Below, one piece after another: positions 4,251 to 59,821 of a stretch of DNA of 64,000 nucleotides. Every line of letters starts with the position of its first letter. Positions within the stretch are counted from its first letter, which is position 1. Where the stretch lies: positions 23,312,001-23,376,000 of the forward strand of contig OZ024755.1 of NCBI GenBank assembly GCA_964016885.1. The letters are read 5' to 3'. Below the pieces are notes generated by a model. That model had not been told where the DNA came from. It made no database searches and was given only the letters and a program-made list of their open reading frames with translations. Source of the DNA: Eledone cirrhosa. Taxonomy: Eukaryota. A program made the translations under genes and the position numbers.

Positions 4251-4487
4251 TATTAAAAAAATAATGAATAAAACAATGAAACAGTTCCTTATATTAAACA
4301 AAAAAAGTTCATTATTTAACGATCGTTTCTAGGATATACATGTGTTAGAATTGGCATGCATATTCATTGTTGAATATGCATGCCAATTCTAACACATGTA
4401 TATCCTAGAAACGATCGTTAAATAATGAACTTTTTTTGTTTAATATAAGGAACTGTTTCATTGTTTTATTCATTATTTTTTTAATAT
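4250..4487. repeat. Perfect inverted repeat: 117-bp arms (4250-4366 and 4371-4487) with a 4-nt loop (TTGT)
   Basis: Base-by-base reverse complementarity read around ...GCATATTCA-TTGT-TGAATATGC... Confidence 0.95.
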
Positions 4488-4624
4488 TTTATCTTGACTC
4501 TGTATTCCGTTTATCTTTCACCGAAAGTGATTTTCATTGCATCTCTTCTTTCCATGATATCCGGATTACATTGAGTTCTTCATACGGATTGGACACTACC
4601 GTAAACTCTTGGTAGATTTATCTA

Positions 4625-5202
4625 CATATATATGTATATATATATGCATGTATATATGTATATATATATGCATATATATATATATATGTATAGAAATATG
4701 TATATATATATGTGTATATATATGTATAGATATATGTATATATATATGTGTATATATATGTATATATATGTATATATATATGTATATATATATGTATATA
4801 TATGTATATATATATATATACATATATATGTATATGTATATATATATATATGTATATTTATATATATATGTATATATATATGTATATATATATGTATATA
4901 TGTATATGTATATTTATATATATATGTATATATATATGTATATTTATATATATATGTATATATATATGTATATATATATGTATATATATATGTATATATA
5001 TATGTATATGTATATATATATGTATGTATATATGTATATATATATGTATGTATATATATATATGTATATATATATGTATATATATATATGTATATATATA
5101 TATGTATATATATATGTATATATATATGTATATATATATGTATATATATATATGTATATATATATGTATATATATATGTATATATATATGTATATATATA
5201 TG

Positions 5203-5253
<51 letters not shown>

Positions 5254-5254
5254 G

Positions 5255-5293
<39 letters not shown>

Positions 5294-5295
5294 GT
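4625..5295. repeat. (TA)n/(TATG)n microsatellite
   Basis: Directly visible. Confidence 0.97.
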
Positions 5296-5394
5296 ATATA
5301 GACATAGAATATTCGAAAATATTCTGTATGTTTATAATAAACATTTTGAAGACCTAATCGCTATAGAATAGAATACGTCACGTATTACAATTAG

Positions 5395-5483
5395 ATTCTC
5401 GATAAAAGCAAGGGAAGTAATCTACGCGTTTCATTCTTGTTAGAAATCATCAGGACTACATATCCAGTGCTTTTATCGAGAAT
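5395..5483 (-). ncRNA. Type I hammerhead ribozyme, copy 1 (core 5417-5459; predicted cleavage GUA^ between 5423 and 5422)
   Basis: The minus strand reads GUAGUC-CUGAUGA-U(UUCU AACA AGAA)U-GAAA-CGCG-UA-GAUUAC. This gives stem I GUAGUC/GAUUAC, the CUGAUGA and GAAA boxes, a 4-bp stem II and a palindromic ACGCGU stem III. Stem I extends via a 16-bp helix (AUUCUCGAUAAAAGCA/UGCUUUUAUCGAGAAU) after an internal loop. Confidence 0.88.
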
Positions 5484-5704
5484 GACACAGCTAGAGACTT
5501 ATAGAATACTTAGCTGTGTACAGGAACTGGTTTGAAAGAGCGGTTGCCGGTCCGGCAGAAATTAGAAATTGGAATAAATGCTCTGAAATAGCGATATATA
5601 TGTGAATATAGACATAGAATATTCGAAAATATTCTGTATGTTTATAATAAACATTTTGAAGACCTAATCGCTATAGAATAGAATACGTCACGTATTACAA
5701 TTAG

Positions 5705-5793
5705 ATTCTCGATAAAAGCAAGGGAAGTAATCTACGCGTTTCATTCTTGTTAGAAATCATCAGGACTACATATCCAGTGCTTTTATCGAGAAT
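5705..5793 (-). ncRNA. Type I hammerhead ribozyme, copy 2 (core 5727-5769)
   Basis: Identical to copy 1, offset by 310 bp. Confidence 0.88.
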
Positions 5794-6014
5794 GACACAG
5801 CTAGAGACTTATAGAATACTTAGCTGTGTACAGGAACTGGTTTGAAAGAGCGGTTGCCGGTCCGGCAGAAATTAGAAATTGGAATAAATGCTCTGAAATA
5901 GCGATATATATGTGAATATAGACATAGAATATTCGAAAATATTCTGTATGTTTATAATAAACATTTTGAAGACCTAATCGCTATAGAATAGAATACGTCA
6001 CGTATTACAATTAG

Positions 6015-6103
6015 ATTCTCGATAAAAGCAAGGGAAGTAATCTACGCGTTTCATTCTTGTTAGAAATCATCAGGACTACATATCCAGTGCTTTTATCGAG
6101 AAT
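6015..6103 (-). ncRNA. Type I hammerhead ribozyme, copy 3 (core 6037-6079)
   Basis: Identical to copy 1, offset by 620 bp. Confidence 0.88.
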
Positions 6104-6274
6104 GACACAGCTAGAGACTTATAGAATACTTAGCTGTGTACAGGAACTGGTTTGAAAGAGCGGTTGCCGGTCCGGCAGAAATTAGAAATTGGAATAAATG
6201 CTCTGAAATAGCGATATATATGTGAATATAGACATAGAATATTCGAAAATATTCTGTATGTTTATAATAAACAT

Positions 6275-11820
<5,546 letters not shown>

Positions 11821-11821
11821 T

Positions 11822-12044
11822 GTGAAGGCGTGTGGCGGAGTGGTTAGAGAATTGGATTCGCAATCGTATGGTTGTGAGTTCAATTCCTGGACCAGGCGAT
11901 GCGTTATGTCCTTGAGCAAGACACTTTATTTCACGTTGTTCCTTGGACTGGAGTTGCGACCGATAGATAGTATAAGCAATTGGAAAGACCAACGGAAACA
12001 CTGTTCCCTCGTTCCGATTTGACGAAAGTCGATTGTTCCTTTTT

Positions 12045-12045
<1 letters not shown>
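11822..12045 (+). mobile_element. tRNA-derived CORE-SINE (Arg-like head; resembles octopus OR-type SINEs)
   Basis: Pol III A box TGGCGGAGTGG (11833-11843), B box GAGTTCAATTCC (11876-11887), TCG in the anticodon-like loop, then the CORE-like TGTCCTTGAGCAAGACACTTTATTTCAC. Related copies lie at ~31430, ~42441 and ~61410 (+), and ~22100, ~26130, ~27550 and ~61000 (-). Confidence 0.8.
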
Positions 12046-12541
<496 letters not shown>

Positions 12542-14141
12542 GCTTGTGTCTTGAAGGCGTGTCAACACCAACTTGCATCTCCTCTTGCCAATCTGCGGCG
12601 GAACTCACTGGATGCTGGATATGTGCCAGAAAACCTTCTATCCCAGTCTGTTGTCCCAGTTTTCAAAAAGGAAACAAATCCCTTGCCGTGAATTACCGTC
12701 CAATCTCACTCACCTCTCATATCATTAAGGTATTTGAGAGAGTGGTGAGATCGCGAATGACCCACTTGCTTGAGAGTAACAATATGCTGAACTCCAACCA
12801 GCATAGATTCCGTAATGGAAGGGATTGCCTGACGCAGCTACTGCATCACTTTGATGACATTTTGAGAGCCTTGGGAGAGGGTTCCAACACTGATGTTATC
12901 TACCTTGATTTCAGCAAGGCCTTTGACAGGGTTGATCATAACATTCTACTGAGAAAACTGTCCAATATTGGTGTCACTGGAAAGCTGCTGCAGTGGATCA
13001 AGAGCTTCCTGTCAAACAGAACCCAACATGTTGTAGTTGAAGGAGTCAAATCCAGCCCAGCCAAAGTCAGTAGTGGGGTCCCACAAGGCACTGTGTTGGG
13101 CCCACTTCTCTTCATTATCTATATTAATGACATCACTGACATCATCAAACACAGCAACATTAAAATTTTCGCTGATGATTCCAAGCTCCAAAAGGTCATC
13201 AATGGCGTGGATGGCCGGATAAGCCTTCAGTCAGACCTACTGGCTGTTACCCAATGGGCGGAAAAGAACAACATGTTACTGAACGAAGACAAATTCGAAC
13301 TGATCCACTTTGGAAAAGAGGATGCTCTGAAACTCCCGTACTCCCTTCCCTCCGAGGAAACTCTCGTGGCATCTAACAACATCAGAGACTTGGGAGTAAC
13401 CGTGGACAGCAACATAAGCTGGGCCACGCATATAAGCAGCAAAGTTGACATGGCCCGCAGAATGTGTTCCTGGATCCTCAGAACCTTCCAGTCGAGAGAT
13501 TCCCACACCATTATCCTTCTCTTCTCTACTTTTGCCCGACCACACCTTGAATACTGTTGTCCACTGTGGTCTCCCCACACGAAACAAAGTATTATGAAAC
13601 TTGAAGCTCCTCAAAGGGCAATCACGAAAAAGATAGATGGCATGTCAGACCTTGACTACTGGGGTCGACTAGAAAAGCTGAAACTTTACTCACTCCAACG
13701 TCGCCGTGAGCGTTATATTATCTGCATGATGTGGAAAATGTTCCATCATCACTGCCCAAATGATGTTGGCGTCGCCTTCAAGATACACCCAAGGCTTGGG
13801 CCCCGTGCTATCCGTCCCATACAAAAATCTAAATCGCAACTCATAACAACAATACAGTACAATTATTTCACCTCAATCGGCCCTGCTCTCTTCAACATCA
13901 CACCAGGACACGTCAAAAATGAAAATGACCACACAAAATTCAAGAAGTCTTTGGACAAATTCCTCCAAGTAATCCCGGACAAACCACCCACACCCGGATA
14001 TGTCTCCGCAAACAGTAATTCTCTTCTCGAATGGGCCATGGTGCCCAAATCCTGAATTGAAAGACTTCGCCAGGTGGTGCTATTAAGTTAGACATGGCCT
14101 GGGCTAATACTGGCCAAAACATTTCAAAGTTATTCAAAGTT
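12542..14141 (+). mobile_element. 5'-truncated CR1-group LINE with a nearly intact RT ORF (stop at 14055) and a short 3' UTR ending in TTCAAAG repeats
   Basis: RT motifs [61 protein letters not shown] and [10 protein letters not shown]. There is one frameshift in an A-run near 12665-12670 (VVPVFKK/GNKS). Flanked by (TA)n on both sides. Confidence 0.92.
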
Positions 14142-14370: not shown

Positions 14371-14892
14371 AAACTTTGAACTTTGAACTTTGAAATGTTT
14401 TGGCCAGTATTGGCCCAGGCCATGTCTAACTTAATAGCACCACCTGGCGAAGTCTTTCAATTCAGGATTTGGGCACCATGGCCCATTCGAGAAGAGAATT
14501 ACTGTTTGCGGAGACATATCCGGGTGTGGGTGGTTTGTCCGGGATTACTTGGAGGAATTTGTCCAAAGACTTCTTGAATCTTGTGTGGTCAGTTTCTGTT
14601 TTGACGTGTCCTGGTGTGATGTTGAAGAGAGCAGGGCCGATTGAGGTGAAATAATTGTGCCGTATTGTTGTTATGAGTTGCGATTTAGATTTTTGAATGG
14701 GACGGATAGCACGGGGCCCAAGCCTTGGGTGTATCTTGAAGGCGATGCCAACATCATTTGGGCAGTGATGATGGAACATTTTCCACATCATGCAGATAAT
14801 ATAACGCTCACGGCGACGTTGGAGTGAGTAAAGTTTCAGGTTTTCCAATCGACCCCAGTAGTCAAGGTCTGACATGCCATCTATCTTTTTCG
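14371..14892 (-). mobile_element. Second, shorter copy (3' ~520 bp) of the same CR1-group LINE, inverted and tail-to-tail with the first
   Basis: Reverse complement of ~13625-14141. ORF 14462-14875 ([25 protein letters not shown]...MVPKS) has a few substitutions relative to copy 1. The tail is (TTCAAAG)3. Confidence 0.92.
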
Positions 14893-17369: not shown

Positions 17370-20300
17370 ATGTCTCTGTTTGATATTAAGCGGTAAGTAT
17401 AAACATTTATTATCAACACATCATGTAATTGATTTAAATACACATATCATAGTATAGATGGAGGGCTTTTCCTTATTTTTTGTCAATGCTGTTATTTGTT
17501 TGATTGTTAAAAATACATCCGTTGTTTTAAGATAAAACTGTGTCATTAAGAAACGTATCCTCAATTTCAACACATGATAACGAGCTGCTCGTTATTGTAG
17601 TTTAATAACATTATTTTGGGGGTCAATTTAAATTAATTTTACCCCTTCTCTTCCAGTCTTGTACCACATAAAAAACAAATCAGAATTTAGATAATCTCAT
17701 CAAAAGATATGGTATTATTATGGAATACCCCACTCGATTTATTTTTTTCGTGTGCTATCAACTCATCTAACCTCCAAGATTTTGGCAATCGAGTTTCCCC
17801 CCCCCCCCCCCCCCTTGGAGTTTTTCCTACGGATTTGTTTTTCGTGTGTTATCAATGAATATGACCTCCAAGCCAGTCTGAAACCACTAGGTTTGTAGAA
17901 AAAGATGTGCAGAAAAGTTTCGCAGATCTGTGAACTGGAGGTTTGCAACACATCGCTAGAAGTAGACATACAATCTGGGAAAGACTGGCTTTGATGAAAT
18001 AATCAAAAATAGGATACTACAGAATAGGGCTCTACCATGCTATTAGCTGTCAGAAGTGAAAGTTTCGTCAACCTTCTCAATCGTAAACATCGTTTATTTC
18101 CGTACTACCACGCGTTATTTTAATAAACCATATCGATGTAAGTGGAGTTACTTAACTGAAAATATAGGTGGCCCTTAAAAGGGCCAAATTAGAAAACAAA
18201 TATATGGTTATCAAATATTTTTCACCAACTCTCCCTATACATGAAATTGATAACCATGACTATGAAAATATAAATGATTAAATCCAATTTATTTGATAAC
18301 CATGACTTGTTTTCTAATTTGGCCCTTTTAAGGGCCACCTATATTTTCATTTAAGTAACTCCACTTACATCGATATGCTTTATTAAAATAACGCGTGGTA
18401 ATACGGAAATAAACGATGTTTACGATTGAGAAGGTTGACGAAACTTTCACTTCTGACAGCTAATAGCATGGTAGTGCCCAGAATAGTGTTAAGATAGACA
18501 ATATGGACATTAAATTAATGATAATGAAAGAATAACACTGAAATATTCGACATTTTTATTCTTAATTGGAGTCATTTGAGCCTAGTGTCATTAATTAATT
18601 ACTCATCATTAATTACTTTTTGCATTGCTGTACATCCTTTCAAAAGCTATGTAAAATGTATTCTTTTCAGCTCTTGATAGAACAATTAAGAATATTGTAT
18701 ACGTAGTATTTAAATACAGGAAAAAGTTACTGATTTGGAAAAGTAGACTAATTATATAAATTAGAACAGCATTTTGAAAAACAACATATAAAGTGTTGTG
18801 TGCTCAGGCATAAAATAGGGGTGGGGTCAGCTTATATTTGAGTATATACAGTAATTAAGCCATATAATTAAATGTCCTGTCTTTGAATATGATGGAGATG
18901 CTTTGCAGCTGTTTCAAATTCACTATCACTGTGAGTCAGTTTGTATCTATTACATATAATATTACTTTTTTATTTTCCATGTTATAGGTATGATGCTGAT
19001 ACTAAGTCAGCAGAACCTGATTCAAAAAGCAAATATCTCGCTAGATTAAAACGTCTGTTAGAAGATGCAGATAAACGAAAGGAAGCAACAATATCCTCAC
19101 CAGCAGGTAAATTTTGTTTGAATTTCTCGGATGGAGAATTATTAATATTATTATTACATTGCCATTCTGAGTTCAAATCCCACCGAGGTTAACTTTACCT
19201 TTCATCCTTACGGGGTCGATAAAATAAAGTACCAGTAATGTACTGGGTAATTGCTGGCCTTGTGCTAAAAGTAGAAACAATTATTACAAGCAGAGAAAAG
19301 TGGACGTAAAATGATGATGATATAAAAATGGGAAAACTCATCGCAAGAACAGCCATTAAGATAGCTAAATGCTGTTATAGACAGTAATGGACAAAAATGC
19401 CTCAGAGACCAGCAGCCAGTGGTCAACAGAGAGACAATCCACAGGGTGGGTGACAGGGAGATGAAATATAGAAATGATTGAAAGATCATGCGAAACCATT
19501 TTGCTGGTTTGAGAGCTGATGAGGGTGAAGATGTGTATGTGTGGAGTCTTGTCTTGTACATCAGCTTTCTTTATTTCCTTATTCCAGTCACTTCTATATG
19601 CCAACACACTTCTCCTTGTCCTCCACTTTCAATCTTTTCTATATTTTATCTGCCTGTGATGATGCTTTCTGGTGTGGAGAGCCCCTATGCACAAGCCACA
19701 TTGTGGTCCCAGTAAAAAAAATGGAGAAAGTTTTACCCCAGAGGAGAGCAAGGGGAAACTATCTGTAGAGTCTCCTTCATTATTCCAAAATATTGCTATA
19801 TAAGAGAAACTTCATTCTAGAAGCAACTAGCTTTGTGAAGAATATGTTGTTATTTCATTCTGAAAGCTAGCAGTTTGCAGATATCATCATTTTATGTCCA
19901 CTTTCCATGTTAGATCATAAAGTAACTGCCCCTTAACATTCTATTCATCATCATCATCACCACCATTTAACATCTATTTTCTTTGCTTGTATGGGTTGTG
20001 TGTATATATCATATCAATGAGAATTTTATCCCCTATTCTCTGACATAATTTATTGTCTTCTCTCATTGCTATGATTTATTATGAGCTCGGTCTCTCTTGA
20101 GCTCCCTTCATCATAGGGAATTTATTGTGAGTTTCTAACTCTATATTATAATTTAATGAATAAGTGTATATATATATTAATATCAATAAATATGTGTTTC
20201 ATACATAATCTAATTCCAGGAAAATCTAAACAGACTGGTGAAGTGGTTGTCCATAAAACAGCTGATGGTGTTACTGTTGGAGAGATTAAATGTCTTGTCC

Positions 20301-23300
20301 AAGAAGAGGAAGTGCATTCAAAGAAAAAGAAGAAACATAAAGACAAGAATGAATTAACAAGTCCTAAAGTGAAGGAAATTGAAGTGGCCCCAGGGGCAGG
20401 AGAAACTAAAAGTAATCATGTATCAACTAAATCTAAAAGGAAAATTGCTGTAAATAATGACGATGATAATGAACAGATTTCTTCTGAGATTGTCAGTAAA
20501 AAAGTGAAAGTCAGTTCTGAATGTGAGGATGCTAAAGATGTAAACGAAACATCTGATGCAGAGACTGAACCATATTGCATTCAAAAGGACCAAGATTTGG
20601 AGGTCTCATTTGATAAAGAAAATGGGGAATTACATAAGAGCCCTCTTCATGAAGGACCATGTGAGTTAGGGGAATTCACTGTTCTTGGAGAATACAGAAG
20701 GCAGGAAGTACAAAAGGTATGACTACTATTCCGTTTTTCATTTCTAATGTCTTACAACTCACCACCTCTTTCCCACCATAGAAAAACTTGCCAAAACAAA
20801 GAATCGAAAGGACTTTTCAGCTGTGTCAAAAATATGACACTTTCCCTGGTCCTCAAAACAATGATCTATTGGATAATGCAGTCCAAGATACATCATCATC
20901 ATCTAATGTCCATTTTTCCACGCTAACATGCATTAGCTGAGTTGTCCTGTTGTGAGACAAGTTAGAACTGGTGACCATGTCTTGTTCATGGCTTGGTTTC
21001 TGCAGTTGGATGCCCTTCCTAATGCCAACCACATTTCCAGTGTAGACTGTGCACTTTTTGTTGTGTCACCAACACGACCACTACATATGTCCGAGAAGAG
21101 AACATGTTAATAGCATGATTACTGCTGGATAACCTTTGATCATAATTTTGCTTGATCAAAACTGATTTGGGGCTCAACTAAAAAATGTAGCATTTCTTAT
21201 GCGTAGATTTTGCCATATCCAATAATATGTTGCTATGGCAAGTTACCCAGTCCTCTTTACAGTTTTCACCTTGTCGTCATCAAGCAGCACACTTATGATT
21301 AAAAAGCCCTCCAGTCATGACCAAACTATCTCAGGTTTCCAATGTCATCTTAAGTAAAAATAGCAAGATGTGATTTAAAGAAAATTTGGCTGTTCTTTTC
21401 AGCCATGTGAGTGACCACATAGAGGCTCTCTTGGTTCATTTTTACCATTCTTTACTTTGACTTTATTTTCATCCAGTGAGATGGATTAACATCAATATGA
21501 GCAGCAGGTTACAGCCTGTTTGAACAGAAAGAAGTGAGAGAATTCTGGCCAGATACAGCCAGTTTAAATGCTAAAGGGTTAATCAACTTTCCCCTTCCCC
21601 CAAAATTGTCTTTGTGCCTAAATAAGAAACCATTATTTTCATCTTTATTACAGGTTTCATGGAAATTACCTGATTGGCTAGTCAAACCAAATTTGATAAA
21701 AACTGACCTGACTGAAGAAAAGACACATATTTCTGAATTTGTTGGTCTTGATGATAAACTAAAGAAAAAGCTCATAGACAATGGAGTCAACTATTTCTTT
21801 CCTGGTAAGTCTTTCTCTCCATCTCTATATACTGTTTCTGTCATTGCCATACAGTATATTAGATTATCTGATAGATCAACTGATGGAGCTGGTACAATAA
21901 TGTGCAAGCTTCAGTACTCAGTCCTCAGAAGAAAGAGAGGTTTAAACTCTGTCTCGAGCCTGGAAGCTCATAAGGCCAGTACTTATTCCGGTTTCTATGG
22001 CATAAAGTGACTGAGAGTACAAAACTCCCCCTTGGACAAGACACCAGTCCACTGCAGGATTAAACTCCCATCTATTGCTGGTACTTATTTTTTAGCTGAG
22101 TATATTAGAGCAATATGAAATGAATTTTTTTGCTTAAGAACACACAATCTAGGTGAAGAATTGAACTCACAACATTATGATCGCAAATCCAACACCCTTA
22201 CCACTAGGTTGTGCACTACCACAAAGAGAGGTAGTTGTAAAAGCTAAATTTGCTATCTTCAGTATGGAGTTCATGCCTACCCTTACCTATGATCATCAAT
22301 CTTGGGTAGTGACTGAAAGAATATGATCACAAATACAAGTAGCCCAAATAGGGTTCCTCGGAAGGGTCTTTGGAGTAACATTACTTGATTTAGTGCATAG
22401 CTCCAGGTAGAGCTGCTACTTCTCTGAACCAAGAGATAACAGCTGAGATACTATAGAGGTGGTTAGAATGACTAAGGAAAGAATTGCTTGACAGATTTTA
22501 CAAGCAAAGCCAACTGACAGGAGACCCTGTGGTAAACTTTGAATAAGGTGGTTGGATAATATCCATAAGCTCGGATGTTCTTGTTTGGGATGCTGCCACA
22601 TCATTTGGTGAAGGTTACTTCTGATAGGACCTGCTGGAATATTTCTTTGAGGAATCTGCCATAAAGACCCTCAAAGGAATAAGTGGGCAAAAAAAAGAAG
22701 ATATATCATAAATCAGATTCAACTATGCACATTCAGTTATTTGATCTACTAAATTTCTGTGTAAGTGAATGAATATTCCATTGATAAGCGTACCCTTATT
22801 GAAATTCTTGGGCCAAATCAACATGACACAGTATGTGATAAAGCTGGACCTTTGAATTAGAAGCAAAATCCATCTGATGGTCTTTTACATAGTTTATTGT
22901 GTTGGCCCAGGATACCACTGGGTGGGATTGAACACTGAAACTGTTGACTGCAAAGTAAACTTTAACCACTTACCCATGCCTACATCTATATTAGTTCATC
23001 TAAAACATTTGATTATTTAAAGAGAGGGCCAGCAGCAGAAGAATCTGTCCTGAATGGTCTATTGTTTTAAGTTCAGTACTCTGCCAGGTCACTGATGATG
23101 ATGATAATAATTGTTTCTACTTTTGGCACAAGGCCAACAATTGATTTAAATTAACTGGTATTTATTTTATCATCCTTTGGAAGGACAAAAAGACAGAGTT
23201 AAAGTTGGCAAGTTTTGAAATCAGAACATAGAGGGACATAATTAAATACTATAACGCATTTCATCTGAATCACTAATGATTCTGGCAATCCTCTACCCTA

Positions 23301-26300
23301 ATAATATTGATGATGATGACGACAAAATATTGCACTAAAATAAATTTATTAGAAAATTAGTCTGGTAAAATATTTAATTGGTTTATCTTTATGACATTAA
23401 AACTAAAATAGAACTAAGGGAGAAAGACAGGAAACAAAATAGCATTTTCCTTACTGATGACATTAAAACTAATTATTTTATTGCTTAATTATTTTTTCAT
23501 TATTTTATTGATTACAGTCCAGTGCCAGTTGCTTCCAGTTCTACTTAACGACGTTCGTTTTGGTGTGAATGTTGGTTGTGGAGGATACCGTCCTCGGGAT
23601 ATCTGTTGTTCGAGTCCAACTGGCAGCGGGAAGACATTTGCATTTGTCCTACCAATTCTTCAGGTGCAGTTCCAATATATCATTATTACTTTTGGTTACC
23701 TTAGGGCTTATCGTGCTGAAGTTGTTTTTAGATTCTGTTCTCTCATACCATATGCCTCTCCAGTAATATGCATGCATGGACCTATAACCCCTGAGGGAGT
23801 CAGGCGAGTGCCATATTGACATACACCATTTCTAGGGCATTTTTTAAAACCTGACGGATCCCATCTCCTCTTTAGGTCTGAACATAGCAGATTTCTTCCA
23901 AAGAAGGATAGAGAGAAAGAGAAAGTGGTATAGAGGAAGAATTAATTCCAGTACTAGACTGGTACTTTTTTATCGACCTCGAATGGATGAAAGGCAAAGT
24001 TGACTTCAGCGGGATTTGAACTCAGAAAGCTGAAACGAATGCCGCAAAGTATTCTAATGACTGCCAATTCTCTACCTTCTCCAGTAATATACTGGAGGTT
24101 AGTTTCATCAAATATACCCTGTTCTTTTACCAAAGGAGCTATTATATCTTTACTATTATCAATATAGATTCTGAACAAATTTTTTTTCTCTATTTATGTG
24201 TTATTAGTTTTAAAAAAATTTTTTTAAATTTCTTTTGTCAGTCACTCAAAGATCGAGTTGTGTGTCGTGTAAGAGCTATTGTTATTTTACCTGCCAGGAG
24301 CCTTGCACAACAAGTATTCAATGTTTTCCAAACTTATGCTGCAGATTTGAAACTGAAGGTAAACATTTTTGTGCTATTTTCAATAAAAAAATTTAGACGT
24401 TTATATAATTAATCTTTATCTTTAGATTATTCTAGTTTGGTGATTACAGATTTAAAGTAGAACTTATATCTTTGCCAACAAAGTCTTAGGTCTTACCTTT
24501 TAAGTCACCAAATACCTGTAATTTTATTGGGTATATTTTGATTTCTGTCAGAAGTTGAGACCAGTAGATAGTATCACCAATGGAAATATTGTTTACTTGG
24601 TCTGATTTGACGAGTTCCATCCCACTTGGTATTTAAATGGGGTCTGGGATCTTGTCAAGCAATTCAATCAATCAATAGATATTTGAGTTAGCTATGGCCC
24701 TTCCTTTTGGCAGCCAATAAGAAATAGAGACTTTCTATTTCTTCTATTGTTCACCTTTTTTTATTTTGTCATCATAATCCAGGGTTTATTTTAAGAAAAT
24801 TTTAGAATTACACAAATCTCTGACTATAAAATACTGACATGTAACTATTTCAATCTATTTCTCTTTTGTTTCCTAGGTTGTCTTAATTATGGGAGAGAAA
24901 TTCTTTCAAAGGGAACAGGAATCTCTAGTTAAGAGAAGGTTGGCATATTTTTTTTTTTTTTGTTCAGTTTTTATGTAAATCTAGTCACATGTTTGTTTTT
25001 CAATTATACTGTATATCTTACATTTACATACATATATATATTTAAACAAACAATGTACAAAGCCGAATTTTGGGCTTTTTTTAAGTGCTGAGAATATATA
25101 AGTATAAAAAAATGTGCTCTAGTGTGAGAGTGCTATAAAGATAGCTTATAAAATAGGGATGTATATCTGCCTGTCTGCTGATGGAAGATATGGGGTTCAA
25201 TTCCTCTTTAGTGTTATTTCCATGATATAATGTGCCCACTATGCTGTAAAGAATCCCCCAACCCTTTTTTTAAAATTGCTTATATAGCTTATTCATGGGA
25301 AAATGCATCCAGTACATTTTATAAAATTGTAGTTCTGGTTTCATGATAAAATGCACCTAGTACATTCTGTAAAGTGTTATTTCGGGTGGCACAATAAACT
25401 GCACCCAGTACATCCTTTAAGGTAGTTGGTGTTAGGAAGAGCATCCAGCTGTAGAAATCATGCTAAATATAGAACATATGAGCAAGATATTGTCTCTCAG
25501 ACCTGTCTAGCCTTGGATGGACCATGGAAACCAATCCAATCCAGTCCAGCATGGATGATGTTACATGTATCTTATTTGTTTCATAATAGTTTGTGTAAGC
25601 TGTATGAACTCGTATCAAATAATATTTTTATATGTAAACTCAGTCTTTCCCTGCAAAAGTTCTGCGATACTGTCTAATGTGGTAAACAGCCAGTACCTTC
25701 TTTTTAGAATGTCTTCTAAAAATATTTGTTTTGTCTGTCTTAACAGTTTATATCCTACATAAATTGATATTTATTACAAAACTATTTTTTTTTCTAATAA
25801 ATTAACCCTTTTAAAGAGCATATATTTCTGTCACAAGTACATTCTGCTTTTGTTTTAGTTTTCAAAATAATCCAGGATTATGAAAGTTGTAGTGAAATAA
25901 CTAATGGTAAAAAATGAGTAAAGATCCCTCTGGTCATGAATGACCTTGGGTTTTGCACCAAGAGAGGACTCTGAGGCAGAAGCCTGGGCATGGTATTTTT
26001 GTGGAAGACCAGCAGTTGTCCATGTATGCCAGTCTCCCTTCTCCAAACCACTGATGCTGTCCAAGGGAAAGGCAATGGCTGATACAGCTTGGCACCAATG
26101 ACATCACTGAGTAAACTGGAGCACCATGAAATAAAGTGTCTTGCTCAAGGACATCACACACCACTCAGGAATTGAACTCAGAACCTCATGATTGTGAATC
26201 CAATGCTCTGACAACTAAGCCATATGCCTTCACTAGTGAAATGACTAACTTTCAACTCAATAATGATAACTTTTCATGTAATAATGAGATTTCTGTCTTA

Positions 26301-29300
26301 AGATTTTCATTTAAATTTGAACTTTTTAAGTTGGCTGGGGTGTAGCCGTACTCGCCACACTTGGTCAATTGTGCGTTGGTGAGGCTATTTAACCCATAGT
26401 TGACTCTGAGGAATTTATCTGCCTTTTTAAGGTTGAACATATTCTATATATATTAACTTTAAATTTCTTTTTCTTATTGTTTATTAAAGACCTTATGGCT
26501 TTGAAAGTTTGGCTGACATTGTTGTGGCAACTCCTGGAAAATTAGTTGATCACCTCTCTCAAACTGAAGGTTTTGATTTAAGTTACCTAAGGTTTTTGGT
26601 AAGTTGCTTGCATTTTTGTACATTGGACTTTTGGGGTACCCTATATACTCGAATATAAGCTGAGGTATATCTAACCAAAAAATCGATGGTACAAAGTAGA
26701 TCGACTTATATTCAGGGTTAATATTTTGACAATTTTCACCAACTTCATATTCTATATAAATAAGGTTTGGATTTTTGCCCATTTCTCAGGCATAAAATGG
26801 TAGTCAGCTTATATTTGAGTATATACTGTAATTCTTTTTTTTTTATTTCCACACTGTACTGTGCATCAGTCCATTTTTTATTTCATCTTTGTTACTATTC
26901 CAGTAATATGTTAGTTTATACTATTATTAGCGTCATCTTTGCTACTATTTTAGTGGTCATGTGGGTGTCATGACAAAAGTGAGCACCCACCCCATGCTGT
27001 AAAGTGGTCGTGTAGGTGTCGCAACAAAAAGCTCCCAGTCCACGCTGTAGGTCATGTAGGTGTCGCAACAAAAAGCACCCAGTCCATGCTGTAGGTCGTG
27101 TAGGTGTCACGATAAAAAGCACCCAGCCCACACTGTACAGTGGTTGTGTAGGCAGCATGGCAAAAAGCACCCATCACACACTGTAGATGTGGTTGGTGTC
27201 AGGAAGGGCATCCAGCCGTAGAAACCAAGCCAAAATCAGTTCTGTGTGAGCGAATCATGGTCCCCCGAGCTGATCCCTCACAAGGGGACAGCCTGTCTTA
27301 CCCATGCTAGCATGGAAGATGGATAATGATCATCATCATCCTTTTACATCCGCTTTTTCCCTGCTTGCAAGGGTGGGACAGGAACTGATTCTGGCTTGAT
27401 TTCTACAGCTGGATGCCCTTCCTAACACCAACCTCATTTACAGTGAGTGCTGGGTGCTTTTTTGCTGTGGCACCCCCACGACCACTTTGCAGTGGAATGA
27501 TATGGACCCCAGTCCTATCATCTCATTTCTACAGCTGAGTAAACTGGAGCAATGTGAAATAAAGTGTCTTGCTCAAGGAAACAGCACATCACCCAGTCTG
27601 AGAATTGAACCCACAACCTTTCGATTGCTAGTAATATATAAACCGGGGGTTGCAAGCTATTTTTCTATGGCCCTGACAGAACAGTTTTCGTGATCAATAT
27701 TGACCTAGTGCATGATAGGTACATTATTTATCAACTCTAAAGGATGAATGGTTAAATTGACCTCAGGGATATTGAACTCAAAATACATAGAGCTGAAACA
27801 AATAGCACAAGACATGGTAGCTCTACTTGTTACTGTGGAGTGGTTTAATATCCAGCTATAAGGTCAGTTGCTGCAGCTAATAAACCATCAGGCCCATACA
27901 AGCATGTGAGATAAATGGTTGTAAGACATCAAGGGAACAAATGATCACACATTTTACAGAAGGGGGTAGGCTTAAAAGCCAAACTCACTATCTCCAATTC
28001 GGTTTTCATACCAACCCTTACCTATGGTCATGAATCTTGGGTAATTACCGAAAGAATACAAGTGACCGAAATGGGATTTCTCCCAGGGGACTTTGGAATA
28101 ACATTACTCAATAAAGTGCTTATCTAGGAGATCAAAGCCACTCAAGGTAGAGCCGCTACTTCTTGAGAGATCACAGCTCCAATACTATGGACATGTGGTG
28201 AGAATGTCTCAAGAAAGAATCGTTAGACAGATTTTATTGGTGAAACCAACAGGTAGGAGACCAAGAGGTAGATCCCAAACAAGATGGTTGGATAACATCC
28301 ATGAACTTGGCTGGTCACGCTTAGGGATCCAGCCAGATCAGTTGGAGACAGTTGCTTTTGACAGGGCCTGCTGGGGGTAGTGTTTGAGGACTCTGCCCCC
28401 CATGACCCTCTCGGGAATAAGTCGGCGAAGAAGATGATGGAGTATGAGTTGGATGAGTTATTGAATTGTAAAGTTTGTTTGTAAAAAAATGAGGTGGATG
28501 TGAGAGGCCAACAAGTAAACAGGAGGGGGAAATCAAGGTTATATTGCTTTGACTTTGTTTCTTTTTACTAAGGTCATTGATGAAGCAGATCGTGTTTTTG
28601 ACATTATAAAGTATGACTGGTTAGCCAACTTAGAGAAAGCTGTTTACAAAATGTCTACTTCTGAGTCTGGGACCAATGGTAGACCAATGCCTGGTCCCTT
28701 AACAATAATGCAGTGAGTCAAAAGTTTTCATTCATATTCTTCTATCAACACTACTATTACCACCACTACTATCACCTCTACAACTATCAACACTGCTGTC
28801 ATCTCTATTACTATGACCTCTACTACTATTACTGCTATTACTATCAGCACTACTATCACCTCTATTACTAACTACCCTATTATACTACTACCACCTTTAC
28901 TACTATCAACAACTAATTGTCACTACAACTTCTATTATTATTGGTATTATCACTGTCACCAATTATTATCAGCACCATCTCTGTTACCACCAACAACACC
29001 AACACTACATGCTTGCAATGAATAAGTAAATAGTTTTTGATTCTTCCATTATCAATACTATTAAGTAAAATTCATAATTGTATTGTTCTCTATTTACAGA
29101 GCTTCAAAGATTTCCTTTCCGGTAAGGACAAAACATTGAAATATCTTCATTACTTCTCATCCTCATCGCTTTTCCTTTTGCTAATGTCTTTATCATAGTT
29201 TGTTTGTTTTTTAATTACACAGCAACAGCTCGGAGGCAGATCAACTTCGGTCAGAATGTGCCAGCCCACTGTAAATTACATATGTAAACATTAAAATGGA

Positions 29301-32300
29301 TATTTTTATAGAATAAGAGCAAAACTGAGAATAAAAAAAAAAAATTCTGAGACTGCTCTTCCAGCAATGGGCTTCTCAGGGTTGCTTACATGTAAATAAT
29401 CTTGATCAACTAGTATTATTTATCTGTTACCACATATCTCAACATACTTTGGCATTTTTCAGGCCCACAATCAAAGTTATTCTAACTATGACTTTCCTGT
29501 CTTTTCAAATTGTTTATATCAGACTACATTATTTCAATTCCTATTTTTTTAAAGACAGTAGGGTGTGATTTGAAAGATATCTGACTGCTGTTTTTAGCAG
29601 ATCAAACAACCACATAAGGGCTTCCCCTGCTAGCACATTGACTCTTTTACTTGTGCTTAGACTGTTCTCTGGGGTACCACTATCTGTTTATATATTTAAG
29701 AAAAAAAAAAAAATTTTTTATTTTATTTGTTCTTGCCAGTGTTCTCTGCGCTACTATCTTTTGTTTATAATTTCTTTTAAAGTTTTTTTTTCTTTTTTCA
29801 ATTTTCAAATTCCAGTTCCAAAAGTTGCTGTTTTCAGCCACCCTCACAGATGATTCTGAGAAACTGAGGAAAGTGAATCTCTTTCAACCCCGTCTCTTTC
29901 TTGCTTCTAAAAAAATTCTCAACAAATCTACTCAGTCTGAAAACAGAGAATCTACTCAACTCAGTGATGGTAATGTCTTATTCTGTTTTCCTCTTTCTTT
30001 TTGTTTTATAATTAAATTTAATGTTGATATTTGGAACATAACTTAACAATGTTTTTTCATAAAATTATGATGGAAGTTTTTTAGATAAATATAAACACTT
30101 TAACCCTTTTGATACCAAACCACCTGAAGCTGCCTCCTGGTTTTATGATATAAAAACTGTTTATTTTAACCCTTTAGCATTTAAACCGACCACATCTGGC
30201 CAGAATTCTCTCTCTTCTTTCTGTTCAAATCGGCTGTAACTGGCCGCTCATACTGATGTTAAGGTATTGTTCTCAAAATAAATAATATCAAAATCTCATA
30301 GATTCGATATTATGAGATAATTACATGAGGTAAAGCCTTTACTGTAAAAATATAATAGTATATATAGAATAATGCAAATGCTAAAAGGTTAAAGTGTTTA
30401 TATTTATCTAAAAACCTTCCATCATAATTTTATGCAAGAACCTTTGTTATGTTATGTTCCAAACACTACTAACTTAATAATGAGAAAGTAAGTTATATTA
30501 TTAAATCCCTCCAAATTCTTGATTATTTTCAAAATTATTTGAAAAATCCTAGGCAGTGTCTTTCATTAGAAATATGATAATGAAAGGGTTAATTAAATTA
30601 TATTCTTCAATTTCAGATTCAAAGAAACAAAACGACACCAAAGTTAATGGTGAACAAAATATCAGATTTATCATTCCTGAAAGTCTTAAGGTATATTTAT
30701 TTTACAATTATTATTCGTAGTATATATTTTACTATATTTTTTTCCTCCTAATCAGAAAGAACTTATATGCTACATAGCCTACACCACTTATCGGTTTTTA
30801 TTCACCATTTAAACATAATGTGTCAATTAGCTGCCTCTGGGTTTGGATTTTTGCCTAAAAAGTGGGAGTCAGGGGTTTTTTTTCTTTCTCAGGATATTAG
30901 AAATACTGAGTGAATATTGTCTGGGCAGAAATTATAAATATAAAAATATAATTTTCAAGCTAAAATGAAACCCAAATCAATATTCTTAAGGATAATTTTA
31001 CCTTATTATCAAAAACGGGGAATAGTTGGATTTTTTCAGCAATAGGACGATGGAATGTATATGTATTGATGCTGAATATAAATGTAAACATCAATATTGA
31101 TCCTTATTGCAGGAAATAGATGCTAAAATGCAATAGAAATAACATTTGATACATAATAAATGACTGTTAAGTTTCAGAAAGATGGTACAATGCGGTAAAA
31201 ATATATAAAGGGCAGAGGATGTCAAATAAATCAAAATAAAGTAATGATTCTTTTGTTTTATTTGTCATCTTTTGCCCTTTATATATTTCTATTGCATTGT
31301 ACTGGCTTTTTGTCATTCATTACATATCCCACAATACTTCATATTAATTATAAAGTTTGATAGATATTTAGATGTCTGAATGTGTGTCTTTATTTAATCA
31401 TTTACATGTGCATAACAAAATAAAATAAAAATGAAGGCACATGGGTTAGAGAATTGGATTCACAATCATGAGGTTGTAAGTTCAATTCCTGGACTACATA
31501 ATGTGCTATGTCCTTAAGAAAAACACTTTATTTCACATTGCTCTTTCTGCCAGGTCTGAAATCTTGTGGATCATTTAAAGAAAGAAAGAAGAAAATAAAT
31601 TGTTATGCAATATGGTAGCTTAATGTAGAAGTAACTGAGTTCTTGTCGAGTGAATTCTTAAATCTTTTTTCTTCAACGAACAAGCAAGCATATTAATGAA
31701 ATCTTAAATTGTCTTTCTTTATCCACAGGAAGAGTATGTGATATGTAATCCTTCTGAGAAAGTTATTGCTCTGGTTCATTTTGTCCTTGATCAAGATTTT
31801 CATAGTGTAATTTGCTTCACTAACTCAATTGAATCAACTCATAGGTAAGTATATTTTTGCTGTGCACCCAGCCAACTCTATAGAGTGGTAGTGCTGGTGC
31901 CATGATAAAATGCACCCAGTCTAATCTTAGCTAGTGAGATCAGTGGTTTGTTACTACATGAGCTATTTAGTTTAATAGTTTACCACATGAGCTGTTGAGT
32001 TCAGTGGTTCCCTCCAAAATGAACTATTGAGTTTAATAGTTATTTACTACATGAGCTATTGAGTTTCATGGGTCCCTCCCACCAAACTTTCTAGCTTTGA
32101 AGCTTTGATAGAAATTGTTCTGATTGTTGTTGTAGCAAGGGATTCTGGTAGTGGCATTGGTGTTCATCATTATTATCATTTAACATCCTTTTTCTCTGCT
32201 AGGGGTCAATAAAAGTACCAGTCAAATACTAGGGAGGGTGGGTGGGGGAGATAGTATGATTTACTGCCCTCCCTGTCCCCTTTTAGCTTTGTGCTTATCG

Positions 32301-35300
32301 ACATTTCCATGCTGGCATAGTAGGGCTACACCTCTGTCATCACCAAAACCAAACAGAGAGTGGTGGAGGTCAACCTGGAAGGGGATCCTCCAACAGGCGT
32401 GAGAAGGGCTTGGATTGGATATCTATGCCTATTCTAATCACAAGTATATTTACATCTAAAATGACAAAACTGTCTCCTAGTTTTCCTTTTCTTGATGAGC
32501 CCTGCACATTCGAGGTTGATATCTGGCCACAGAACAACAACAATCTTGACAGTTTGATTTAGAATAAATAGTTATAATGTTTAATTGTGTGTCCTGTTTA
32601 TTTGTTCCAGACTCTGTCTCCTTCTTAAATTAATTAACAAATTTCCTGTTGATGAATTTTCATCAAGAATCAAAGGAAAGCAAAAAGAAAGTATTTTATC
32701 AAAATTTTCCAATGGTTCCATTAGATTGTAAGTATAGTCACATTTTTTCTTTGAAATGTTCTTATATCTTGTCTAAGTGAAACTACTATTAATATTAGGT
32801 GAGATATTTGTCACAATTTTGGTACTGGTGTTTGTTGCAGAAGTAACGGCATTGGTAGCAATAGATACTTGTATTTGTATCTGTATCAGTGTTCACCTAA
32901 GATGGGTTGAATCTGCTCCATCCAGTGATTCCATACTATTGCAAATAAGTCACCCACCCATGCATGGTGAACACAGACATCTGATGTGGGTATTTGTCAA
33001 CTAGTCACATTTCCAGTGAAGTCACTCATCCATATATGGCTATCACAGACTTCTGGCGAGAGTATTATTTGTCCACTAGTCACAATTCCAATGGTGGACA
33101 CAAGATATATATAAAGACCAGCATTGATATATTAGTTCAAGATTCAACTTGAGCCAATCCATGTTTTTAGCTGTCTGCTTTGCTATTTATGCCATTTTAT
33201 TTTTCTGTAGGTTGGTGTGTACAGATGCAATGGCCAGAGGAATTGACTTGCTTAATATAGACCTTGTTGTCTCCTATGATTACCCAAAGTATGTGGAGAC
33301 ATACATTCATCGTGTTGGCCGCACTGCACGAGCTGGCCGTGAAGGTACCTCTGTCAGTTTGGTGGCTAATGGACAGGTAATTGATCTTCTTAGTTCAATA
33401 TATTTTTATAAAATGAATTGTGTGCAGGAAAGGAAGCAGTTTTTTTTAATACGAAATAGGAGAACTGTTATAAAAGGGAGTGAATGTATTGTTGTATATT
33501 GTTATTAGTTGTGTTGTTGGTTGTTTTGACTTTGATGCAAGGCATATATATTATTTGTTTTAATGGAACTATATAAAATATTACTTATGTAAAAGTCAAC
33601 ATTTCTACACCAGATTAGGTTAAATGTTCTGCCTTCCATCATTCGTAATGGAAGGCAGGAGGCTGAATTAAATACAAGATTTGCTATTTTCAGTTCGGTG
33701 TTTATGCCTACTCTTACCTATGGTCATGAATCTTGGGTAGTGACCTAAAGAATATGATTGGGGATACAAACAACTGAAATGGGTAAGTAGCTCAGAGATC
33801 AGAGAGTCACTTCAGGTAGAGCTACTACTATTCTGTATTACAAGATCAAAGCTTTGGTATTATGGTCATGTGGTTAGAATGTCTAAGGAAAGAATCACTG
33901 GACAGATTTTAACAGCAAAGTCAACAGGTAGGGGACCCAGCAGTAGACCATGAGCAAACCAACTGGTAGGAAATCCAGAGGTAGACTATGAGCAAGATAG
34001 TTGGATAACATCCATAAGGTTAGTTAGTCTCACTTTGGAATCCATTTGGATCCAGTTGCTTCAGATAGAACCCTCTGGAAGGTGTGTCTGAGGACTCTGC
34101 CCCCATTGGCTTAGCCAGTAAAATCTGTCCAGTGATTCTTTCCTTATACCTTCTAATCATAGTAGTGGAGCTTTGATCTCTCAATGCAGAGAAGTAACTG
34201 CTCTATCTGGAGCAACTCCCTGATCTCTGAGCTGTGCACTCTATCAAGTAATGTTACACCAAAGATCCTTTGGAGGAGCCCCATTACAGCCACTAGTATT
34301 CGTGATCAGATTCTGTCAGTCATTACCCAAGATTTATGACAATAGGAAAGGGTAGACACAAACAGCAAATCGAAAATAGCAAGTTTAGCTTTTACACCTA
34401 CCTCTCTTCTGATGAACGAATGTTGAAGCTGGTGCATTATTGCACCATCTTCAGCAATTTTTTTTTTTATTTAATTCAGCAGCACCAATTTTATAATATG
34501 TTTTCCTTTATTTTCTGAAAATGTATTCAAGGTTGTTCACTTGAAAGCAATGCGTAAACAGTGCCAAACCCAAAATAAAATTTTTCAAATAAAACTCACA
34601 AATCAAATTAGAAAAAAGTACTTCCCCCTTCTACACAGCGCTGTTGAAGCTCTGCCTGCATCATTAAAGGTAATTATGGAATTGTCAATATTTGTTATCA
34701 TTCTGATTGTACATTAATTTGATATGGGGTCCATTACCAAAGGTTGATACCCTATTTAACCCTTTTTTTTTCCATATTTCTAATGAAAAGCTCTGCCTAT
34801 GGTTTTCAAATAATTTTGAAAGTTATCAAGAATTTTTAGGGAATTTGATTAAATAATTAACTATTTTATTATTAAAGAAAGTGACTGAAGCATTAAAAAA
34901 ATCTCCTACATAAAATTATAGAGGAAGGTTTTTAGATGAGTATAAACATTTTAAAACAACCAGTTTTCTATCATAGGATTGGGGGCAGTTTTGTATCAAG
35001 AATGTTAACTCTTTCATGACATCAAACTACCTATTTGAATTTTCAAAATAATCAAGAATTTGTTGGTGTTTTGAATGTATGTTATTTACACCCCACTATT
35101 TTATGTCTGAGAAATGGGCAAAAATCCAAACCTTAGAATTTCAGTCTCTCATAGTAACATTTCCAGGCCTCTTTCTTTTCTCCAACAATATCACAATTCA
35201 CACTGACACACTGCCTTGCAATGCAGAACACTTCGTATCTCTGATCCTCACGTTTCAGGATGTTGGCAAATTTTCTTTCTTAGCCACCTGGTACTGTTCT

Positions 35301-51800: not shown

Positions 51801-53761
51801 TGGTTGTTAGTCGCCAGACCACATCCCTGATCGCTGCTATTGGAGTGGAGCTGGCTACCTGCAAGTGCAAGCTCTGCGAAGTGGAGTGGCTGTTTGAGCG
51901 CATCTCCCTCGGCTTCCTCTAAGGTAATGTCTTCGCCATCCTGTCAGCGACAACCATGAAGTGGACTGTCACTTAAGATATGTTTGTATACTATGTTTTA
52001 CTGTCAGCCTTGCTGTCCTCTGGCCGGGACCACAATGCAGACTGTCACTTAAGATATGTTACAAAGTTTATTTTTAATGAACTGCCAACTTGATGAGTAA
52101 CACCACTAATGTTTATGATGTACATTGTCAGTGACACACAGACAGTCTGACTTACAGGTATAATAAAAATAAAAGAAAGAAATTTATAATTAATTTAGGT
52201 TTGCATATCAACAAAGAAGAAAATGAAAAAAGAAAAAGAAAAAAATTAAATTGTGAAAATAAGGGAAAGGGAGGAGAAAGTGGCAGACTCTACTCTCCAG
52301 TTTAGGAGGTATATTTCAGCTGCACCCCATGGACAAAATGATAAAGGTACTGTTGTAGAGAGCAGCCAGAAACATCTGCTGCATCAGCCACTCTACCTGA
52401 TGGTACTCCTTCCTCAAGCAGGATGTGCTCCTTCTGATTTTGTAGAGAAAAACAGCTGCTTGAAGATTGAGGACACCGAATGTCTTGATGGTGACTGGCA
52501 TGAAAAGGCTATTTTACTCTCCTCTGCATTGCAGAGGAGATGGAGCGTCGGTTGTGCTTTGCGGCATATAGTTACGTCCCTTTACGTTCTGAATTTGAAT
52601 TCCACTGAGGTTAGCTTTGCTTTTTATCCTTACGGGATCAATAAAATGAAAGTACAAGTAATGCACTGAGGTCGATTAAATCAACTTTCCCTTTCTCCCA
52701 GTTGCTCGCCCTGTGTCTAAATCAGAAACCATTATTATGATGTCAGTATATGACCTCTTAACTTATTTATTCAAGTTCATGACTTTAGCATATTTAATTT
52801 AGTATTTCTCTAAGCTCATTATATTTCTTAAATATTGTTACGCTGTTTTTCTATGTAGACACGTACAAATGTAATTAAGTTTGTAGATTAGTGTTAGCAT
52901 GGAGAATTGTAAAAGCTGACTAGAAATAAATATATTGTAAAAAAACAACAACACAAAAACAAACAAAAACGATAATTCGGTTTAGAATTTCACAAGCAGG
53001 AGTCAACTGCACATTAAAATAATCACTGATGTGTATAGAGTGTATATTGTTTATATATGTAACTATTTGTAGATATAGTCATATGACTACATATGTATAT
53101 ATATGTGTGTTTATTATTGATGACTTGGCAGAATCGGTAGAGTGTCTGACAAAATGTTTTGTGGCATTTATTCCAGCTTTTTACATCCTGAGTTCAAATC
53201 ATATTGAGGTCAACTTTGCTTTTCATCCTTTCGGGGTCAATAATATGTTAGTACCTGTCAATTACTGGGGTTGATTTAATCGATTTTTTTTCCCTGTTTC
53301 CCCTTATTATTGGCTTTGTGCCTAAAGTGCAAATCGTTTTTGGTAGAGACATAGTCATATGTCTTCTTCTTGTGTCATCCGATGCCTTGAGGCAATGGTG
53401 AGGCATTGACAAAGTTCAAACTCCGGAGTTCTCAGTTGGCCATCGCAGCATGCAGATCCATTTCTTTGAGGCTTGAGATGCAATTCTCCAGTGGGTTCGT
53501 CTTGGTGAGTGACATGGCTGGCAAGGGCCAGACAACGATGCTTCAGAACATCAAGAATATGAAGCAGAAATCCATATAGAGACTCGTTGGATGACATCGC
53601 CAGAAGATGTTGTATGCCAATATAGCATCCTGGTGTATGTACCATTGAGTCTTGTGGCGAACAGCATTCAATGTCCACAACTCTGAACCACACAGAAGGA
53701 TCATTTCTATACAGACCAGAAACATCCTTGCTTTTGTGTCCTTATCATATAACTTCATGTA

Positions 53762-53802
<41 letters not shown>

Positions 53803-59780: not shown

Positions 59781-59821
<41 letters not shown>

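Follow-up and report, generated by a model that had tools for sequence, protein, structure and literature searches.

Tandem 310-nt hammerhead repeats of Eledone cirrhosa resemble a young non-LTR retrozyme family that a Penelope-type enzyme probably spread from circular RNA

Metazoan non-LTR retrozymes, which have been described in coral, mussel, and axolotl, are non-coding tandem repeats that have 150- to 450-bp units, a GC content below 50%, and one type I hammerhead ribozyme per unit. Their RNA circles have been demonstrated (PMC7229834, accessible text), whereas for the family described here a circle is predicted. The accessible retrozyme literature offers a life cycle as a hypothesis: a circle is formed and is then converted into tandem cDNA via an autonomous element that is probably a PLE. 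In its accessible text, PMC7229834 proposes mobilization by a PLE without evidence from insertion sites, and the terms inverted, tail, microsatellite, octopus, and cephalopod are absent from that text. PLEs themselves show an inverted 5' copy, a 30- to 40-bp tail, and a bias toward (TA)n, and the accessible part of PMC8557442 terms the origin of the inverted and tail structures undefined. The anole PLE PAc, a predicted dimer, cuts and extends both strands and has two internal start sites for reverse transcription that bound the tail (PMC11167929, accessible text). The retrozyme class was already known (accessible texts of PMC7229834 and bioRxiv 10.64898/2026.07.22.740005); the main interest of our results lies in the family-wide evidence on mechanism and not in the repeat itself.

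The window was a 64,000-nt stretch of the E. cirrhosa genome. An earlier note, made from the sequence alone, had described three identical 310-nt units plus a partial unit at positions 5296-6274, with a complete type I hammerhead core in each unit on the minus strand and no coding capacity. This description was borne out. The array was 979 bp long (3.16 units), and every position from 5296 to 5964 was identical to the position 310 nt further on. The minus strand contained three copies of the motif GUAGUC CUGAUGA UUUCUAACAAGAAU GAAA CGCG UA / GAUUAC (the slash marks the predicted cut), and a search for a ribozyme in the other polarity found no hammerhead motif on the plus strand of the array. 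The motif positions agreed with the cuts proposed earlier at 6043/6042, 5733/5732, and 5423/5422, and the two monomers predicted to be released were identical. The longest stop-free stretch in the six frames was 59 codons, and the unit had no ORF of the RT plus GIY-YIG type found in autonomous PLEs. The unit was a non-coding tandem repeat of 310 nt with 34% GC, both within the values of non-LTR retrozymes, and its single type I hammerhead was apparent from the motif, the stems, and covariation with a sister family. The features are given below; unit position 1 is the first nucleotide after the cut, and S and T are the two sites at which the arms of the family ended.

5296..6274, minus strand: one-armed retrozyme insertion with 3.16 tandem units of 310 nt; its variable 5' end is at 6274 (unit position 79) and its fixed S end is at 5296 (unit position 127)
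6037..6079, minus strand: type I hammerhead copy 1, predicted cut after GUA at 6043/6042
5727..5769, minus strand: type I hammerhead copy 2, predicted cut at 5733/5732
5417..5459, minus strand: type I hammerhead copy 3, predicted cut at 5423/5422
5733..6042, minus strand: predicted monomer or circle 1, 310 nt, 34% GC
5423..5732, minus strand: predicted monomer or circle 2, identical to monomer 1
6015..6103, minus strand: 16-bp helix that extends stem I and closes the monomer ends, present in each unit (fold; 4 compensatory changes in 13 pairs versus the sister family)
5900..5984, minus strand: long hairpin, unit positions 59-143, with the S site on its 3' strand (fold; 75% identity to the sister family over positions 59-170)
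5904..5917, minus strand: S end site, spread over unit positions 126-139 with the mode at 130 (69 arm ends)
5871..5878, minus strand: T end site, spread over unit positions 165-172 with the mode at 165 (61 arm ends; the window insertion does not end here)
4622..5295, no strand: target tract rich in (TA)n beside the S end
6275..12541, no strand: target tract rich in (TA)n beside the 5' junction, which has AT microhomology

Four features of the locus had escaped the earlier note. The base of stem II was a U.U pair, stem III consisted of one A-U pair that enclosed the palindromic loop CGCG, stem I was lengthened by a 16-bp helix (6088-6103 with 6015-6030), and the array was embedded in a (TA)n tract and terminated at a site that was fixed throughout the family. 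The first two features have separate counterparts in axolotl: helix II of Amex2 begins with a U.U, and helix III of Amex1 is one pair long and carries a palindromic tetraloop; the 310-nt family had both features (PMC7229834, accessible text). The monomer fold was stable (-72.5 kcal/mol, z = -4.38), and none of 100 shuffled sequences folded as well. The active hammerhead core was not formed in the lowest-energy folds of the RNA. Because closure of stem III in the monomer was unfavorable (+2.1 versus -3.1 kcal/mol, a cost of about 5 kcal/mol) while the self-duplex of ACGCGU reached -7.5, cleavage as a dimer seemed likely, as has been reported for the axolotl motifs (PMC7229834, accessible text). 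The modeled hammerhead was thus probably weak as a monomer, and a dimer was probably needed for cleavage. The Rfam check proposed in the earlier note gave a hammerhead match (HH9, 19.2 bits, E 0.026) that fell below the gathering score of 52.

Plant LTR retrozymes and hammerhead viroids likewise produce a small structured circle via hammerhead cleavage, which was the prediction for the 310-nt family, but the family had a type I instead of a type III hammerhead and did not have the LTR/PBS/PPT layout. As for the label "viroid-like" in the earlier note, the results supported a circular-RNA retrozyme; nothing was found for replication from RNA to RNA. The S end site contained an AU run that was able to pair with a nicked (TA)n strand, and the stretch between S and T formed a PLE-type tail of about 35 nt. 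Judging from the fold, the long hairpin was the probable region of RT binding and initiation. A target-site duplication could not be read because the flanks of the window array consisted of (TA)n. Rfam microRNA matches in the TA flanks were rejected as low-complexity noise.

To place the array in the genome, we relied on pattern searches of the 3.0-Gb genome. The exact 43-nt hammerhead gave 4,177 matches and a backwards control pattern gave none, and a degenerate hammerhead pattern gave 18,285 units. For end-junction patterns, the plus strand alone gave 733 matches of the T end and 1,015 of the S type, some of the latter internal; the minus-strand counts were inflated by overlapping matches. 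The family comprised roughly 1,500 to 2,000 insertions, and the units of the examined arms were mostly 98 to 100% identical to the window unit. The arrays were dispersed over many contigs, as the earlier note had anticipated, whereas Xenopus multimers cluster at chromosome ends or centers (bioRxiv 10.64898/2026.07.22.740005, accessible text). An independent run, X2, which looked like genomic DNA, yielded 659 contigs with many variants and with loose TA ends at both the S and T sites, and this ruled out the concern that the array was an assembly artifact. X2 was one of four runs analyzed among the six listed for the unit, none of which was labeled as RNA. The other three, with other organism labels (X1, X3, and X6), each yielded one clean self-closing contig of 340 nt (310 nt when closed, depth 10 to 15), which a DNA tandem would also produce; contamination, diet or eDNA, and related hosts could not be told apart as the source. 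Within a literature search that covered the main texts of open articles and few subscription papers, we found no description of the 310-nt family, and the same scope returned neither a paired S/T rolling-circle anatomy nor an editing signature for a retrozyme.

We examined 132 insertions, of which 72 were fetched whole and 60 were 1-kb pieces picked for a T end at position 170. The whole insertions were the window copy and 71 from the first 117 Mb of contig C1; one had an N gap, and two in L061 resembled a single duplicated event. The regions were picked for paired end matches (40), for apparently unpaired ends (20), or by hammerhead position alone (12). Fifty-nine of the 72 whole insertions were two-armed, with divergent S and T arms. 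One was complex, 10 had only an S arm, and two had only a T arm; no insertion combined S with S or T with T. The proportion 59/72 overstated the two-armed share because 40 loci had been picked for paired ends, and among the 12 that had been picked by hammerhead position alone, 10 were two-armed. In the case of the window copy, there was a single S arm without an inverted partner.

The S end fell at the mode, position 130, in 38 of 69 arm ends, and the T end fell at position 165 in 42 of 61. (TA)n adjoined 130 of 131 arm ends. At the 57 middle junctions, we observed an overlap of 1 to 7 nt (31 junctions), short filler (14), a blunt joint (7), a longer overlap (4), or long filler (1). The 5' ends were spread around the unit (uniformity p 0.2), with 1 of 130 at positions 1-5 where 2.1 were expected. 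Arm lengths were compatible with an exponential distribution (p 0.1), with medians of 971 and 1,452 bp; 116 of 132 arms were longer than 310 bp, and one exceeded 9 kb. Separately, the arms at L036:2599-2870 were joined by a 272-nt GC-rich filler that was possibly a captured RNA, and an Rfam search of this filler gave no match.

The family thus displayed an inverted 5'-truncated partner, two start sites for reverse transcription with a tail between them, and an AT-rich target, and by analogy its paired arms matched the inverted copy and the 30- to 40-nt tail that mark PLEs. The same inverted truncated copy, tail, (TA)n or AT-rich targets, and two starts downstream of a hammerhead are found in PLEs with GIY-YIG (PMC8557442 and PMC11167929, accessible texts). 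In contrast to those PLEs, the retrozyme had no ORF, was 310 nt long, and had many repeats per arm, and all 59 simple two-armed insertions used each start once. In addition, the S site was AU-complementary to the target, whereas the priming of PAc is reported as non-homologous (PMC11167929, accessible text).

Two further hammerhead families were identified. The sister family was older, about 306 nt long, and 65% identical to the unit (L104:2433-2864 and L153-L182; at least 40 copies scored of 2,802 candidates). It had its own hammerhead with a predicted cut after GUU, the same two S and T end sites, and the twin-arm layout with mostly short arms. Of the 21 stem pairs compared between the two families, 10 were unchanged, eight were compensatory, two were kept by a one-sided change, and one was broken; these pairs were counted with anchors, as automatic alignments were out of register after stem III. 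The 23-copy sister set was picked by intact core and was uninformative on core conservation. The third family (L183-L212), whose 3' end in (TA)n gave about 16,000 matches, had twin arms with a ~70-nt tail. Most of its arms stopped at one 5' site that had a TATA/CCAAT-like region immediately upstream, a pattern that resembles the copying of short linear PLE-end transcripts. No ORF was linked to the loci of this family. An apparent A-versus-G difference between its arms was rejected as a query-bias artifact, with G in 100/100 of the matches listed. In all four hammerheads (those of the window unit, the sister family, L183-L212, and a PLE family that includes L136), stem II began with a U.U pair, which suggests a shared feature rather than decay.

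Sequence variants indicated how many templates had contributed to each insertion. Haplotypes were compared at five diagnostic positions of the hammerhead: the two arms matched in all 51 insertions compared (chance 0.27), and none of 4,073 unit-site calls was discordant within an arm. There were 41 haplotypes across 119 well-covered insertions, and 11 variants were private to one insertion and fixed in both of its arms. A variant in every unit of both inverted arms requires a single-unit bottleneck. Of 38 non-fixed substitutions, only one (in L067) was found again at the corresponding lap of the other arm. The change 276A>G was not fixed in one arm of two insertions (L063 and L064); specifically, the T arm of L063 had A in laps 1-4 and G in laps 5-6, and its S arm had G in all seven units, possibly due to an edit that arose while the circle was being copied. 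Some long arrays had been reshaped as DNA: in L035 a variant pair recurred with a period of seven units, and L073/L074 had recurrent variants that were scattered. We found no support for a junction marked by misreading at a ligation scar: two of 193 non-fixed calls fell within 3 nt of the cut, and these were one duplicated variant. The clean junctions and the free passage across the cut favored a closed circle, and the shared haplotypes and 5' ends that were indifferent to the cut would fit rolling-circle reverse transcription of one monomer circle. Fixed variants spared the 12 core positions (0/42) and struck other hammerhead positions 11 times (p ~0.03), and this suggests that only cleavable RNAs propagate. 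One of the fixed hammerhead variants repaired the U.U pair.

The substitution counts excluded the terminal zones and the initial 25 nt of every arm, as well as 11 single calls, all other than A>G, at three noisy junctions. On the hammerhead strand, A>G accounted for 16 of 39 distinct array-fixed substitutions versus 3 of 93 single-unit substitutions (Fisher p 1.2e-7). Among the 38 independent events outside the backbone haplotypes, 22 were A>G and three were T>C. Some of these changes recurred: 20A>G was present on five backgrounds, and 276A>G (UAG, stem I) was present on four. A 5' U preceded 11 of 16 A>G sites versus 35 of 91 adenosines (p 0.014), and a 5' G preceded one site. This bias toward 5' U and the scarcity of 5' G match the 5' neighbor preference of ADAR, U>A>C>G (PMC11019741, accessible text). 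The A>G sites were mostly paired (0.78 versus 0.61). Selection for changes that tolerate G.U could contribute to the A>G excess, and it leaves the 5' U bias unexplained. Taken together, the spectrum suggests that RNA edits were written into DNA, and ADAR is the likely cause of the array-fixed A>G excess. The single-unit changes leaned the opposite way (17 T>C versus 3 A>G, p 0.005), and this excess would fit per-lap errors of the RT through a dG:rU mechanism.

On its testable features, the element appears to work like, and is, a non-LTR retrozyme mobilized by a PLE. The proposal in the earlier note of a young retrozyme mobilized in trans gained support from the near-identical dispersed arrays, the single haplotype per insertion, and the PLE-type ends. 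We propose, with a probability of roughly three in four, that a PLE RT/GIY-YIG protein acting on circular RNA spread this young retrozyme. An array would be transcribed (a promoter was looked for and none was found), and adjacent hammerheads, probably paired via the palindrome ACGCGU, would cut out 310-nt monomers for a host ligase to close, as in known retrozymes. Judging from the mutation spectrum, the structured RNA would occasionally be edited by ADAR. The PLE protein, probably as a dimer, would then cut a (TA)n tract on both strands. Both DNA ends would prime reverse transcription on the same RNA, at unit position ~130 for one and ~165 for the other, and this would produce the fixed ends that we observed. 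Each RT would circle the RNA for a random number of laps, in keeping with the observed arm lengths and break points, and the cDNA ends would be joined in the middle of the insertion by microhomology or short filler to give the observed left- and right-pointing arms. The window copy would be a minority outcome in which the S arm alone was made or kept. A more specific version, which we rate at even odds, is that each insertion was one RNA circle copied from both break ends by a dimeric Penelope-type enzyme with one subunit per start site and rolling-circle reverse transcription, and that ADAR edits of the circle were the main source of new heritable variants.

Alternatively, the same PLE machinery could have copied a multimer circle, or a linear transcript that spanned several units of a homogeneous source array and remained uncut, with the hammerhead as an inherited pLTR feature or an occasional activity. 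Linear copying of this kind would agree with the weak monomer hammerhead and with the anole PLE, which prefers uncleaved RNA, does not need hammerhead activity, and inserts in vitro without its hammerhead (PMC11167929, accessible text). That dispensability, together with the finding that one of nine predicted Xenopus retrozymes cleaved in vitro (bioRxiv 10.64898/2026.07.22.740005, accessible text), counts against our explanation, as do the unfavorable stem III of the monomer, the lowest-energy folds that did not form the active core, the reshaped long arrays, the lap-shared variant of L067, the arms of L063 and L064 in which 276A>G was not fixed, and the failure to find a homologous PLE end in the 50 GIY-YIG loci described below. 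Homogeneous source arrays would also give matching arms, and L067 had one variant at the same lap of both arms; however, such lap-shared variants were confined to that single case, and linear copying cannot spread a one-unit mutation to all units, as seen in the 41 fully fixed haplotypes and the 11 private variants. If a linear multimer were edited, the change would show in a single unit; A>G, in contrast, was enriched in all-unit variants and rare in single-unit variants. Moreover, the PLE-end family with an apparently linear template mostly stopped at one fixed 5' site, and the retrozyme family did not. We therefore regard copying of an uncut linear or multimeric template as unlikely.

Template jumping is a property of non-LTR RTs, and an RT that jumped repeatedly from the 5' end to a 3' end of a linear hammerhead-cut monomer would impose the same monomer bottleneck without a ligase. 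Against this reading, the junctions were clean apart from the one duplicated variant, 5' ends did not pile up at the cut, and haplotypes did not switch within arms, so that a jumping RT is quite improbable. A still smaller chance goes to one-unit insertions that were later expanded and homogenized as a satellite by unequal crossover, a scenario in the accessible text of bioRxiv 10.64898/2026.07.22.740005. The higher-order repeats in L035 and L073/L074 would be expected from such events, and the short arms of the older sister family indicate that arm number can change over time. Crossover is difficult to reconcile, however, with the prevalence of multi-unit arms of near-identical units, with private variants common to both inverted arms, and with the strand asymmetry of the spectra, including the single-unit T>C excess, which is as expected of RNA copying.

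If the circle was copied by a PLE protein, candidates for that protein were present in the genome. Intact RT plus GIY-YIG frames of up to 938 aa were found, some of them within two-armed TA insertions, and the named relatives of one such PLE protein came from bivalve molluscs or bivalve-associated records. One PLE family (L136, L137, L140, L146, L147, and L132) had RT and GIY-YIG, copies up to 98% identical, and a minimal hammerhead. L136, L140, and L147 had a palindromic A-GUAC-U stem III and ends ~120 and 160 to 170 nt past the cut, with one two-armed copy; their geometry was like that of the retrozyme unit, but sequence similarity was absent. By analogy, the L136 family is a candidate driver. 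A homologous pLTR or PLE end was not found in 50 GIY-YIG loci, from 150 scored of 10,595 candidates. The Xenopus retrozymes, as pLTR derivatives, likewise co-occur with PLEs and are non-autonomous; their PLE link is sequence similarity to pLTRs, whereas the link of the 310-nt family was its insertion anatomy, without a homologous pLTR found (bioRxiv 10.64898/2026.07.22.740005, accessible text).

A burst of about 1,500 to 2,000 near-identical insertions makes sharp predictions about the RNA, the two start sites, the target, and the lap number. Copying of a single circle from both break ends by a transposon enzyme had been proposed earlier and is now suggested by the shape of the copies and their mutations. 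The family also points to germ-line RNA editing that would feed back into the genome through a mobile RNA, and programmed tandem insertion could be tested in a minimal system made up of one PLE protein and a 310-nt RNA.

The remainder of the window contained several other elements. Exons at 20117-33508 on the plus strand presumably encoded a DEAD-box helicase (DDX51-like), and those at ~46500-62267 on the plus strand encoded what we take, from the translation, to be a pyruvate dehydrogenase E2/X-type subunit. LINE reverse transcriptase fragments at ~12540-14055 (plus strand) and 14462-14890 (minus strand) stood face to face around TA tracts. An intronic hammerhead-like core at 62315-62356 on the plus strand had stem II but unconvincing stems I and III (fold z 0.38) and was probably a decayed element. 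Finally, positions 4257-4466, within the left TA tract, formed a near-perfect inverted repeat with arms of about 100 bp.
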